DNA from: a virus
Lineage: Duplodnaviria; Heunggongvirae; Uroviricota; Caudoviricetes
DNA length: 6,532 bases
Virus record (IMG/VR): IMGVR_UViG_2711768009_000014
Direction: 5' to 3' (one strand)
The position numbers and the translations under genes are program-made. Of the stretch, positions 1-6,532 are shown in pieces. Each line of letters opens with the position of its first letter. The stretch's first letter is position 1. The notes under the pieces were generated by a model, which saw only the letters and a program-made list of their open reading frames with translations, made no database searches and was not told where the DNA came from.

Positions 1-140
1 CATTGAGATTTTCTACAATCGTCAGCGTCGTCACTCTCGTCTGGGGAATATCTCCCCGGCAGCCTTCAGGGAAAAATATCATCAGATGGCTGCTTAAAAA
101 AAGAACAAATGGTAGTGTCCGCTATTGCCAGTACACCTCA
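1..140 (+). mobile_element. IS3-family insertion sequence, right end only (orfB 3' end plus terminal inverted repeat ending ...CA at 140); the rest of the element lies outside the window
   Basis: Bases 1-140 are the exact reverse complement of 6393-6532; identity stops abruptly at 140/141 and 6393/6392. Contains the C-terminal coding end of a transposase with the IS3-family OrfB signature ...FYNRQRRHSRLG..SP..F... The specific IS name cannot be assigned from memory. Confidence 0.8.
2..97 (+). CDS. IS3-family transposase OrfB, C-terminal 31 codons (5'-partial, runs off window start)
   Basis: Frame 2 translation IEIFYNRQRRHSRLGNISPAAFREKYHQMAA* with stop TAA at 95-97; the YNRQRRHS motif is typical of the C-terminus of IS3-family integrase-domain transposases. 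Confidence 0.75.
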   Translation: MEIFYNRQRRHSRLGNISPAAFREKYHQMAA

Positions 141-3591: not shown

Positions 3592-4650
3592 TTATGCTTT
3601 CCACTTCAGAACACCCGAATTTCTCGCGTGCATTAAAAAACGAATCAGCAACAACAGCTGACTGCCGTGTTTCTCTTCAAAATCTTTTACTCCGGCATGT
3701 AGTTCGTTACGGCATTTACGGCATAACGGAATAACAAACAAATCATCAGCCTTTGTTCCCATCCCTCCCAGTCCATGACCAATGATGTGATGCGGATCAT
3801 CTGCCTGATTGCCACACGTCATGCATTTCTGCGTTTTTACCCAGCGCGTGTATACAGGCATCTCTTCCCGTTGTGATTTCTGGCGCTGGAGATACTGAGC
3901 CGGTGACTCCGGATCAACGGCAATGCTGACCACCGTCTTTTCCTGTGGTGGGTTCTGTTGCTGGTGGACGTGAGGCAGTAACGCAATATTTTTTGTGCGC
4001 TGCTTCAGTATGCTGGTGGCTGTCTGCTCTCCCGGTATGATGTCGCTTTCACTGTACACAGAGCGAATTTTTTCCGCACGCAACCCCAGCGAACGACGTA
4101 ATACCGCTTCCGGTAGCGCGTCCGCCACCTGATTGCGGACCGCCCACCAGGATAATTCAGCCAGAGATAATTCACGCTCCTGCGTACCGCTTATTGCGTG
4201 ACCGATGACGTCAATCATCCATGCTGACAGGTTTTGATGAGCAAGTTGCTCGAGTGATTCGGATGTCTGGTCACGCAGCTGGTTGTCGCAGTGCCAGCAC
4301 AACACCATTGCGCCGGTACCATAACGGTGAATGACGGTTTCGCTGTGATGATAATCGCCGTGTGGCCACTGGCAGGATTTAATATGGCGCAACAGCCAGT
4401 CAGACAATGCACCAGCACCACCAGCAGCACGAATCACCCGTGCGTTACTGAAAAACGGCAGCAATGTTTTGTCTTCCACCAGCGGCTGGCGAGCGGCAGG
4501 AACGACCCCGGACGGCAGATTACGCATGCTTTTTGGTTCCGGCTCCACCAGTATTCTGCCGTTATGGAATGCTGACATTGATTCACGGCCTGGCTTAACG
4601 ATAACCAGACCGAGTTCCGGTACCAGAACAGGTCGAAGTAATACCCGCAC
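3592..4650 (-). CDS. Prophage DUF968-like protein (YdfU-like) with C-terminal HNH-like Cys/His motif
   Basis: 352-aa ORF with GTG start preceded by a strong SD (tctGGAGGtaatGTG); C-terminal CMTCGNQADDPHHIIGHG...CRKCRNELH resembles an HNH/zinc-ribbon nuclease motif. Size and position (immediately upstream of rusA and Q) match the ydfU-type gene of Qin-like prophages; family assignment is from memory. Alternative ATG start at 4578. Confidence 0.6.
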   Translation of the reverse strand: MRVLLRPVLVPELGLVIVKPGRESMSAFHNGRILVEPEPKSMRNLPSGVVPAARQPLVEDKTLLPFFSNARVIRAAGGAGALSDWLLRHIKSCQWPHGDYHHSETVIHRYGTGAMVLCWHCDNQLRDQTSESLEQLAHQNLSAWMIDVIGHAISGTQERELSLAELSWWAVRNQVADALPEAVLRRSLGLRAEKIRSVYSESDIIPGEQTATSILKQRTKNIALLPHVHQQQNPPQEKTVVSIAVDPESPAQYLQRQKSQREEMPVYTRWVKTQKCMTCGNQADDPHHIIGHGLGGMGTKADDLFVIPLCRKCRNELHAGVKDFEEKHGSQLLLLIRFLMHARNSGVLKWKA

Positions 4651-4725
4651 ATTACCTCCAGATCCGTTGCTGGAATGTGCGGGACGGACGCGTTGGCCGT
4701 TCGGAGTAAGGGAGCCTGACGGAGA

Positions 4726-5007
4726 TTATCCAGTGACGGTAGTCGAGGCTAAGGGCTTTTTTAACCTCGCATCCGCGCCTGCGGTAACACTGAATGAGCC
4801 ATTCGGCCTGTTCTTCAGTGCATGGGGGATGCTGGTACCAATCAGATTTAAATGCGTGAGAGCGCCGCCCGTGCCTGCTGGCAAAGACGGCTGAATTATC
4901 AGAATTGTGTAGTCTGGAAGGCAGTGGCTGACAATAGCGCCATTCTCAACGCGCACAGTATAGAGGCCATCTTCACTAAAAATTTCACGTAATTCTTCGA
5001 TTTTCAT
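4726..5007 (-). CDS. Hypothetical protein (93 aa from ATG at 5007)
   Basis: ATG at 5007-5005 preceded by a good SD (ctGGAAGGAttctgttgATG). N-terminal 40 aa (MKIEELREIFSEDGLYTVRVENGAIVSHCLPDYTILIIQ) look protein-like; the C-terminal half is Pro/Gly/Thr/Ala-rich and unusual. Confidence 0.45.
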   Translation of the reverse strand: MKIEELREIFSEDGLYTVRVENGAIVSHCLPDYTILIIQPSLPAGTGGALTHLNLIGTSIPHALKNRPNGSFSVTAGADARLKKPLASTTVTG

Positions 5008-5089
5008 CAACAGAATCCTTCCAGATAAATAGCACTCCCCTGTTCGGGGTCCATCCCTCTTCTCCCTGCGCGCTACTTAAGTATTTTTG

Positions 5090-5119
5090 ATTCTATTCCG
5101 GCACCATCTAAAACTTCAA
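5090..5119 (-). promoter_or_regulatory. Candidate sigma70 promoter for the 93aa-DUF968-rusA-Q operon
   Basis: Minus strand TTGAAG - 18 nt - TAGAAT, directly downstream of the hok terminator and about 85 nt upstream of the 93-aa ORF start; spacer slightly long. Confidence 0.35.
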
Positions 5120-5126
5120 ACGCGTT

Positions 5127-5159
5127 GAAAATAAAAACAAAAACCCGCCGAAGCGGGTT
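5127..5159 (-). terminator. Rho-independent terminator at the 3' end of the hok mRNA
   Basis: Minus strand AACCCGC-ttcg-GCGGGTT followed by TTTTGTTTTTATTTT; about 70 nt downstream of the hok stop, as expected for a hok transcript with a 3' fold-back region. Confidence 0.7.
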
Positions 5160-5227
5160 AAGTGTGGGTGCATTGAGGATGCCTGCCCCATCAGAGGTGG
5201 CGAGGGATTTCTCCCCCGCCTGGTCTC

Positions 5228-5383
5228 TTACTCCTCAGGTTCGTAAGCTGTGAAGACAGCGACCTCCGTCTGGCCGGTTCGAATTCGTACCTCGCAGAGG
5301 TCTTTCCTCGTTACCAGTGCCGTCACTATGACGGTTAAACAGATGACGATCAGGGCGATTAACATCGCCTTTTGCTGCTTCAT
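5228..5383 (-). CDS. hok: Hok/Gef-family membrane toxin (type I toxin), HokD/RelF-like, 51 aa
   Basis: MKQQKAMLIALIVICLTVIVTALVTRKDLCEVRIRTGQTEVAVFTAYEPEE: single transmembrane helix plus the conserved C-terminal ...RKxLCEVRIR..G.xEVAAF.AYE block of Hok proteins; SD GGAG 9 nt upstream. The leader (GCTTGAGGCT ... TAGCCTCTTAC ... GCAAGGAGAAG.AGGC.ATGAA) parallels the plasmid R1 hok mRNA leader as recalled. Confidence 0.9.
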   Translation of the reverse strand: MKQQKAMLIALIVICLTVIVTALVTRKDLCEVRIRTGQTEVAVFTAYEPEE

Positions 5384-5431
5384 AGCCTGCTTCTCCTTGC
5401 CTTTCGGCACGTAAGAGGCTAACCTAGATTT

Positions 5432-5505
5432 GCCGTTCATAGATTGAGCCTCAGATTAATGTTAAGCGTCTTGCCGGACGCGTAATGTTAACTGGGGCTT
5501 TTCTC
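5432..5505 (+). ncRNA. Putative Sok-like antisense RNA (antitoxin of the hok locus)
   Basis: On the plus strand inside the hok leader: TTGCCT (5397-5402) - 17 nt - TAACCT (5420-5425), with a transcript complementary to the mok-like SD/start region and ending near GGGGCTTTTCTCT (about 5495-5505), which resembles the 3' end of R1 Sok (GGGGCUAUCUUCUUU). Ends are approximate; no clean terminator hairpin identified. Confidence 0.4.
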
Positions 5506-5559
5506 TATCTGCCTTTTGGTGTTCATGCCTGAGACAGATAGCCTCAAGCACCCGCTGCA

Positions 5560-5588
5560 ATTCTACTTAACTCTCCTTTTCCCGCAAA
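5560..5588 (-). promoter_or_regulatory. Candidate hok mRNA promoter
   Basis: Minus strand TTTGCG - 17 nt - TAGAAT, with predicted start about 7 nt downstream at ..GGGTGCTTGAGGCT, corresponding to the conserved 5' end of hok mRNAs. Confidence 0.5.
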
Positions 5589-5674
5589 CCGTTTTTATCC
5601 CCAGCGGCAAATCGAATACACCACCAGCGCCACCGCCATCGCAATTCCTACCGTTGTTAATGCTTCAGGCCAGG

Positions 5675-6019
5675 TCATCGTAAAATATCCTCCACGCTTA
5701 TCAGTCCGTTCCGCTCCAGATAACTCATCGCCTTATCCGGTAATTTGCAGTCTGGCTTCGCTTTCCTCAGTTGCCAGGTTAACTGCTTTACCAGCATGGT
5801 TAACTCATCGACCAGACGCTGATATCCCACTGGTTTGTATTCATGCAATTTACCGGCTGGCTCTGCTGCCAGCGATACCAGTGCGATTTCCAGAACAGCA
5901 ATATCCATCTTATATGTGCGGATGATGTCATGGTCGATTGTGCCCGGTATGCACAGTCTCTGTGCTTCAATAGTCTCCTCTGCGTGAGCTATTAACTGCT
6001 CTCTGGTAAAAGTCGTCAT
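5675..6019 (-). CDS. Hypothetical protein (114 aa), longer member of a paralogous pair
   Basis: ATG overlaps the stop of the upstream 55-aa ORF (ATGA). Shares N-terminal MTTFTRE (vs MTTITKE) and the block [11 protein letters not shown] (vs [11 protein letters not shown]) with the 55-aa ORF. No family recognised. Confidence 0.55.
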
Positions 6020-6183
6020 GCCGTAGCCCCTTCTTGATATTTTTCAAACCAGAACACAACCGGCTCTGCTTCCAGCGATGCCAGCGCAATCCGTGCCAGT
6101 TCCATTTGTTCACCACGGGTAAGCCCGTTTTCAAGCGGGTTTTTAATGAACAATTCAATACGTTCTTTGGTAATAGTGGTCAT
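6016..6183 (-). CDS. Hypothetical small protein (55 aa), shorter member of the paralogous pair; below the 60-aa cutoff of the ORF track
   Basis: ATG at 6183-6181 preceded by a strong SD (taaGGAGtaacacATG); translation [55 protein letters not shown]; stop overlaps the start of the 114-aa ORF. Confidence 0.5.
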
Positions 6184-6193
6184 GTGTTACTCC

Positions 6194-6392
6194 TTAACCC
6201 GCAGTGCTTTCAACTGATGAGGGGAACAAAATCTTTTCATCAAACCCTGCATTCATATCATGAACAGCAACACACCAATCCATCGACGAACGATTATCAA
6301 GAGCCTCCATGATTTCATCCATGCGGCGTAGGTCATACAGGTAAATGCTTTTATCGCCAATGGTGTAAAAGCCAATTTTTTTCGGTGATGGA
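6194..6392 (-). pseudogene. 3' fragment (about 65 codons) of a gene truncated by the IS insertion
   Basis: Open frame runs from inside the IS end (6424) across the junction at 6393/6392 to the stop at 6194; the first 10 codons are IS-derived, so only ...PSPKKIGFYTIGDKSIYLYDLRRMDEIMEALDNRSSMDWCVAVHDMNAGFDEKILFPSSVESTAG* is native. Product not recognised. Confidence 0.5.
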
Positions 6393-6532
6393 TGAGGTGT
6401 ACTGGCAATAGCGGACACTACCATTTGTTCTTTTTTTAAGCAGCCATCTGATGATATTTTTCCCTGAAGGCTGCCGGGGAGATATTCCCCAGACGAGAGT
6501 GACGACGCTGACGATTGTAGAAAATCTCAATG
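6393..6532 (-). mobile_element. Second copy of the same IS3-family element end, inverted orientation; the rest of the element lies outside the window
   Basis: Exact reverse complement of 1-140. Confidence 0.8.
6436..6531 (-). CDS. IS3-family transposase OrfB C-terminal fragment (5'-partial, runs off window end)
   Basis: Mirror image of 2..97; same translation ...IEIFYNRQRRHSRLGNISPAAFREKYHQMAA*. Confidence 0.75.
   Translation of the reverse strand: MEIFYNRQRRHSRLGNISPAAFREKYHQMAA

Follow-up and report, generated by a model that had tools for sequence, protein, structure and literature searches.

The DNA analysed here is a 6,532-nt stretch from a tailed phage (Caudoviricetes; IMG/VR record IMGVR_UViG_2711768009_000014), to which we refer as the window. 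The locus of interest holds two small genes, orfA and orfB, which encode proteins of 55 and 114 amino acids (Table 1). Both open reading frames had been predicted between positions 5675 and 6183, with no strand given; we found them there on the minus strand. The genes share the four nucleotides ATGA (6019..6016), so that the stop codon of orfA (TGA, 6018..6016) lies across the start codon of orfB (ATG, 6019..6017). A strong Shine-Dalgarno (SD) sequence precedes orfA, as had been noticed originally, and the SD of orfB (AGAAGGGG, 6034..6027), which sits within the last codons of orfA, is weaker. No RNA family was found within 5675-6183 using Rfam, and a scan of 5200-6532 for promoters and terminators returned nothing exceeding the shuffled expectation. 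Two further features were absent from the original prediction, namely, an ATGA-coupled frame (orfC) that follows orfB and the end of an insertion sequence (IS) element that lies 209 nt upstream of orfA.

Table 1. Features of the orfA-orfB locus and its surroundings (window coordinates).
Feature	Position	Strand	Basis or remarks
orfA, 55 aa	6016..6183	minus	ORF list, sequence, PHROG
SD of orfA, AAGGAG	6190..6195	minus	6 nt before the ATG; overlaps the stop codon of the 87-aa upstream gene
orfA N-module, aa 1-41	6061..6183	minus	Near-identical to the N terminus of P22 EaA
orfA copy of the joint motif	6061-6090	minus	Direct-repeat partner of 5858..5887 in orfB
Junction tail, orfA aa 42-55 plus stop	6016..6060	minus	Holds the SD of orfB
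orfB, 114 aa	5675..6019	minus	N-module subtype B, short linker, conserved C-terminal tail
orfB N-module, aa 1-54	5858..6019	minus	Predicted two-helix hairpin
orfB joint motif	5858..5887	minus	25/30-nt direct repeat; hybrid P0031 is joined within the motif
orfB C-terminal tail, aa 70-114 plus stop	5675..5812	minus	Contains CKLPD; near-invariant columns in alignment A1
orfC, 27 aa, hydrophobic ORF	5595..5678	minus	ATGA-coupled to orfB; SD GGAGGA
mok/hok/sok type I TA locus	5228..5553	minus	hok, PF01848, E 3e-23; sok, Rfam
87-aa upstream gene (phrog_1714), 3' part	6194..6392	minus	IS-truncated; 22 N-terminal codons lost
IS3-type element end	6393..6532		Perfect inverted copy at window 1-140

The proteins encoded by orfA and orfB are related at their N termini. 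The opening residues MTT[IF]T[KR]E and a second block, IAL[AV]SL[EA]AEP, are common to both, and the resemblance is real by BLASTP (33% identity across the N-terminal 41/54 residues; E 1e-5), in agreement with what had been read from the two sequences by eye. The DNA that encodes the second block, which we refer to as the joint motif, forms a direct repeat of 29-30 nt with identity at 25/30 positions. In its codons, orfA and orfB differ at synonymous sites in 3 of 8 shared residues, which indicates that it is the protein sequence of this N-terminal module (N-module) that is conserved. The same four PHROG profiles (phrog_660, 60, 3323, and 5117) were matched by both proteins; the match of orfB to phrog_660 (8.2e-43) came in two stretches, and orfA matched phrog_3323 (1.3e-19) and phrog_60 (4.3e-18). 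Searches of Pfam, NCBIfam, and PADLOC returned no matches for orfA, orfB, or orfC, and the earlier statement that neither of the two proteins falls into a named family thus held for Pfam and NCBIfam. For the Pfam family Ead_Ea22 (PF13935), neither orfA nor orfB gave a match even at an E value of ≤1, and the gathering score was not reached. When the PDB was searched by sequence, neither orfB nor P0090, a 197-aa family member, matched anything below E 0.28, and no informative fold match was obtained.

To describe orfB, it is convenient to start from its two ends. AlphaFold2 predicted helices at residues 6-26 and 30-51 of the N-module (pLDDT ~90), and residues 1-47 are also found at the head of P0066, a 198-aa DUF551 protein. 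The C-terminal part has its own sharp border: 36 of 63 C-terminal matches to orfB begin at residue 70. The 45-aa tail that starts there (C-tail) terminates proteins of 130-400 aa with unrelated middles, and the C-part of orfB occurs with no fewer than eight N-module subtypes. It also terminates N15 gp45 and two proteins with an Ead_Ea22 domain, ST64B Sb32 and FSL SP-016 gp280, in which the Pfam domain makes up the first 106-159 aa (3e-31 and 3e-33, respectively). Conservation of the alignment columns in the C-tail is strong across the family, and comparison of orfB with two diverged copies (~90-94% nucleotide identity) gave dN/dS values of 0.24 and 0.36. Thus, orfB is a real gene under purifying selection. 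Judged by its composition, it appears to be a minimal full member of the family, in which a linker of 15 aa connects N-module subtype B to the C-tail. The longer protein had originally been described as the shorter one plus a C-terminal extension, which is loosely right as to layout; however, the two N-modules are different subtypes (33% identity) and not copies of each other.

The N-module of orfA is known from a different set of proteins. Residues 1-40 are 92.5% identical over 40 aa to the N terminus of P22 EaA, and the same module stands at the head of HK620 HkaE (DUF551), of many DUF550/DUF551/Eaa proteins, and of numerous short forms. The point at which these relatives part from orfA is narrow and falls within residues 39-44 in 75 of 88 diverging homologs. 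What follows in orfA is a 14-aa stretch, the junction tail, that accompanies orfB and not the N-module of orfA. The nucleotide match to ArgO145, for example, extends from the stop codon of orfC (5594) to window position 6060, the codon right after the joint motif, and the last 14-15 residues of orfA are identical there to the C terminus of a 121-aa HNH endonuclease. The junction tail and the 4-nt overlap were constant in 79 of 79 scorable viral loci, while the body of the upstream gene varied, which places the tail in the DNA block that bears the ribosome-binding site of orfB. At least four N-module subtypes carry a junction tail of the orfA type, and additional stubs (P0230 and P0240) have other N-modules.

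Because its N-module ends at the joint and its tail is owned by the block of orfB, orfA is most simply read as an EaA-type N-module that was severed just past the joint and attached to the upstream block of orfB, that is, as a stub made by recombination. Deposited annotations use related terms; the record of phage ON470583 labels orfA "EaA protein," and that of phage g341c labels a related stub "Truncated P22 EaA protein." All copies of orfA are ~96-100% identical to one another and therefore give no independent sign of selection on the 55-aa product. Stubs with the same tail recur and short N-module proteins are frequent, so the N-module-only stub could be kept for a function of its own instead of being a scar.

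Modules of this kind recur on a large scale. An exhaustive search with the family profile recovered 1,734 cluster representatives (50% identity) at an E value of ≤1e-3, of which 266 remained at ≤1e-10. Among 110 sampled representatives, Pfam domains were limited to DUF551 (8 proteins), Ead_Ea22 (2 proteins), and pyrophosphohydrolase (1 protein), so that nearly all of them had no Pfam domain; the long representatives are named only "hypothetical" or "DUF551" in their sources. With a conserved N-part, exchangeable C-modules, and a place in the early accessory region, the family has the architecture of Ead/Ea22-like genes. Modules are swapped at the very segments that its members share. Genes of the family also adjoin one another. 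In ST64B and SP-016, the gene that overlaps the stop codon of the tail is itself an N-module gene (MTTITKEW...), and since the stop of the tail thereby overlaps the start of another N-module gene, the family forms head-to-tail arrays. The order in these two phages (ST64B sb32-sb31, L088; FSL SP-016 gp280-gp275, L089) is an Ead_Ea22 domain with an orfB-type tail, ATGA, and then the N-module gene, and the junction of tail stop and MTT start is a conserved array boundary in both. The N-module gene that follows the tail in SP-016 additionally bears dATP/dGTP pyrophosphohydrolase and DUF551 domains.

We surveyed the pairing of orfA and orfB in 5,426 complete Escherichia coli genomes, in which orfB was counted at a coverage of at least 80%. 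By this measure, orfB was present in 563 genomes, full-length orfA in 318, and the intact pair in 324. The orfA gene was matched in ~1,340 genomes, mostly as N-module DNA on other genes, such as those for DUF551 and DUF550/dATP-dGTP pyrophosphohydrolase proteins. Of the genes that precede orfB in 79 viral loci, 57 were of the orfA type, 19 encoded an HNH endonuclease, and 3 were stubs of 61 aa that carry a different N-module. This HNH endonuclease (121 aa; L002 3423-3788 in ArgO145) runs into orfB through the same ATGA and is also found in many E. coli genomes; separately, it gave generic HNH matches to the Septu PtuB profiles of PADLOC (best E 3e-8). The diverged copies of orfB (~90-94% nucleotide identity) are preceded by either a DUF7167 gene or one of 95 aa, and both the overlap and the junction tail are missing there. 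A scan of genome contigs by peptide patterns yielded 2 loci, the patterns being too specific. Pairing is thus not obligate. The presence of the intact block in two operon contexts and in 324 genomes could nevertheless mean that the combination has been selected, instead of being inherited from a recent common ancestor.

By means of near-identical DNA from phages and complete E. coli genomes, we placed the locus in the early operon of a lambdoid prophage, which runs cI/cro, replication genes, arrayed ead/Ea22-like and hypothetical genes, the 87-aa gene, orfA, orfB, hokD, DUF968, rusA, Q, methylase, and tRNAs. The block lies in the PR operon in two related loci (L001 and L003), and in PhiR49_2 the 87-aa gene, orfA, orfB, and orfC lie in the exo-xis region beside xis and int. 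In L003, 5 of the operon's 16 gene junctions are start/stop overlaps of 4 nt. The hok gene adjoins the pair in the window, as had been predicted, and it does so in only part of the relatives: downstream of orfB-orfC in 79 viral loci, we found hok in ~54, a different toxin-antitoxin (TA) locus, encoded on the opposite strand, in ~16, and xis-int in 9, and phage 933W has hok but no orfB. Linkage of orfA/orfB to the hok module is accordingly not constant. Since hok is variable and ATGA overlaps are common in the operon, neither feature is specific to the orfA/orfB pair, and the hok locus is a neighboring, separate module outside the orfA/orfB unit.

In the genome that the window represents, the IS end cuts orfA and orfB off from the early promoter, and this upstream insertion probably reduces or abolishes their normal expression. 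The element has a counterpart at the other end of the window. Positions 1-140 and 6393-6532 form a perfect 140-nt inverted repeat that corresponds to the inward ends of two IS3-type copies (rve_2 C terminus), and the two copies flank a 6.25-kb prophage fragment in a layout like that of a composite transposon.

We also considered whether orfC is a selected gene. The frame is unbroken in 72 of the 79 viral loci and remains open and hydrophobic in the diverged orfB copies too; in 933W, it follows an unrelated gene, L0139, upstream of hokW. The orfC sequences of the window and of 933W differ at 12 nucleotides, 10 of them in amino acid-changing codons and 2 synonymous, and the adjacent noncoding DNA is 96% identical. 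This substitution pattern shows no purifying selection on orfC, which is therefore no more than a putative gene. Its ATG-ACC start may be a vestige of an array junction.

The closest studied analogue of orfA/orfB is Ea22 of phage lambda. Ea22 proteins of lambda and Stx phages are tetrameric, favor lysogeny, and are mosaics in which a common N-terminal and coiled-coil part is combined with exchangeable C-terminal domains, including DUF551 (PMC10834534, PMC7093339). The likeness to orfA/orfB is threefold: both groups are mosaic, nonessential accessory proteins of the early operons of lambdoid phages; the C-tail of orfB is the C-terminal module of true Ead_Ea22 proteins (ST64B Sb32 and SP-016 gp280); and the orfA/orfB block can occupy the exo-xis region (PhiR49_2). 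The N-module of orfA/orfB, however, is a short helical hairpin, whereas Ea22 has a short segment followed by a long coiled coil. As orfA and orfB also lack a match to PF13935, their link to Ea22 is architectural (a portable tail and an operon niche) and not one of whole-protein homology.

Other known proteins resemble parts of the pair. The 317-aa EaA protein of P22 is matched by the 55-aa orfA at residues 1-40 only and is thus not a full-length homolog; orfA lacks the ~275-aa body of EaA and ends in 14 residues derived from the junction that precedes orfB. N15 gp45, ST64B Sb32, phrog_660, and phrog_924 have an orfB-type C-tail (60-71% identity) with an ...EDILR end and an ATGA onto the next gene, and N15 gp45 has, in addition, an N-module of the same kind. 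These proteins are longer than orfB and have variable middles, and in ST64B and SP-016 the next gene after the tail is another N-module gene and not orfC. Literature searches on EaA, on hkaE, and on an anti-defence link yielded nothing relevant.

Taken together, these data make it probable, in our view with good confidence, that orfA and orfB are adjacent members of a mosaic EaA/Ead/Ea22-like early accessory family and not a dedicated pair. The family would consist of nonessential early ("ea") genes that lambdoid and P22-like prophages carry. Its proteins begin with an N-module of ~40-55 aa that starts with MTT(I/F)TKE, is predicted to fold into a hairpin of two helices, and has the joint IAL(A/V)SL(E/A)AEP as its end. 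The module is followed by nothing, by a variable middle (DUF551, dATP/dGTP pyrophosphohydrolase, or unknown sequence), and/or by the 45-aa helical C-tail. The similarity of orfA to orfB would then be the signature of the family, and their ATGA overlap would be the usual junction of dense early operons, with transcription normally occurring within the PR (post-replication) or PL (exo-xis) early operon. By analogy with Ea22 of lambda and Stx phages, the hairpin is probably an oligomerization or scaffold handle, and the C-tail is probably a small portable binding module whose target, in the host or in the phage, would be engaged early in infection.

An alternative in which orfA and orfB are functional partners cannot be given much weight, although it fares best among the rivals, and we consider it unlikely. 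Here, the orfA stub would hetero-oligomerize through the shared hairpin with orfB and other N-module proteins of the same prophage and would cap or modulate them as a dominant-negative or regulatory subunit. Such a role would be consistent with the presence of the same predicted hairpin module on orfA and orfB, with the recurrence of stubs composed of an N-module and the tail in at least four N-module subtypes, and with the oligomerization of lambda Ea22 through its non-CTD part. Arrays of two or three N-module genes are, moreover, common: counting within ±3 kb of orfB in viral loci, we found one N-module gene in 18, two in 49, and three in 13, all of them co-oriented. The same count argues against a required partner, because the 18 loci (of 80) with a single N-module gene have only the N-module of orfB itself, and in other loci the place upstream of orfB is taken by the HNH, DUF7167, or 95-aa gene. 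An AlphaFold2 model of P0001, a natural orfA-orfB fusion used in place of a complex, was of low confidence (pLDDT 59, pTM 0.42) and lends no support to packing; since MAFFT had placed all orfA homologs on the second module, the model is uninformative. A broader version, in which the hairpin is a common handle through which EaA-family proteins of one prophage or of co-resident prophages co-assemble, with stubs like orfA capping or regulating the display of effectors, is similarly improbable. If it were true, mixed oligomers would make the accessory proteins a combinatorial network instead of a set of independent genes, and stubs would tune which C-terminal modules are displayed (the tail module, DUF551, or dATP/dGTP pyrophosphohydrolase).

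The original prediction suggested a two-gene cassette forming an undescribed TA, superinfection exclusion, or anti-defence system, in which a 114-aa effector would be accompanied by a 55-aa partner. Like the genes of a type II TA system, orfA and orfB are small, overlapping, co-oriented, and located in a prophage accessory region, and TA loci are found nearby (hok here and other TA pairs in ArgO145 and L093). Unlike such genes, they encode proteins that are homologous to each other, they resemble no family of TA or defence proteins in Pfam, NCBIfam, or PADLOC, and they lack the conserved pairing that would be expected of a type II TA or of a two-gene defence or anti-defence system. The putative toxin, orfB, stands without orfA in hundreds of genomes (324 pairs against 563 genomes with orfB), and the neighborhood survey found an HNH gene, other stubs, a DUF7167 gene, or the 95-aa gene in the place of orfA. 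The original prediction itself had named a lack of pairing among homologs as evidence against a system of this kind. In addition, the translational overlap is generic to the operon, and a natural 101-aa hybrid, P0031, merges the two genes into one protein, with the N-module of orfA fused to the C-part of orfB inside the joint motif. We therefore regard a dedicated TA or defence pair as very improbable. Least probable of all is a local tandem duplication in which one gene gave rise in situ to orfA and orfB, which then diverged, with truncation of one copy: the genes are adjacent, lie on the same strand, and have N-terminal and joint motifs in common, but their N-modules are ≥90% identical to those of other genes (P22 EaA for orfA and P0066 for orfB) and only 33% identical to each other, and an unrelated HNH gene has the tail of orfA, all of which points to recombination between family members and not to duplication in place.

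If orfA and orfB are members of a mosaic early accessory family, as we favor, then paired small paralogs beside a TA locus are simply the normal look of EaA/Ea22-like arrays in lambdoid prophages, and similar findings elsewhere should be treated likewise. The family comprises >1,700 clusters at 50% identity and is almost wholly outside Pfam, and its intragenic module borders are sharply defined. Defining the N-hairpin and the C-tail in the manner of Pfam entries would help to annotate prophage genes now called "hypothetical," which number in the thousands. The family also offers a clean natural case of domain shuffling at a short conserved joint.

Two of the relatives that were recovered carry host labels that call for caution. 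L090 (JAJXBQ010000377.1) is a 1.8-kb contig that was binned in a Segatella copri metagenome-assembled genome, and its orfB is 100% identical to that of the window; it is most likely DNA of an E. coli prophage that was binned wrongly. The record of "Actinobacillus phage vB_Apl-pPE4" (PP818812.1; L005) contains a hok-orfC block with 97% nucleotide identity to E. coli prophages, as well as a 181-aa full-length member of phrog_660, and its attribution to an Actinobacillus host looks doubtful.

Elsewhere in the window, the segment between DUF968 and hok (4650-5228) holds only a 94-aa ORF on the minus strand (4726-5010) that has no Pfam match; the same segment of the reference prophage L003 contains ImmA/IrrE and helix-turn-helix genes instead. 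A run of 31 N (1830-1860), which represents an assembly gap or masked sequence, lies just upstream of the DNA methylase gene. Finally, minus-strand features at 319-508 and 585-834 comprise the sRNA STnc100 (Rfam, 123.6 bits) beside tRNAs Arg-tct, Arg-tcg, and Met-cat, and related phage loci (L001) have such a tRNA cluster in the interval from Q to the lysis genes.
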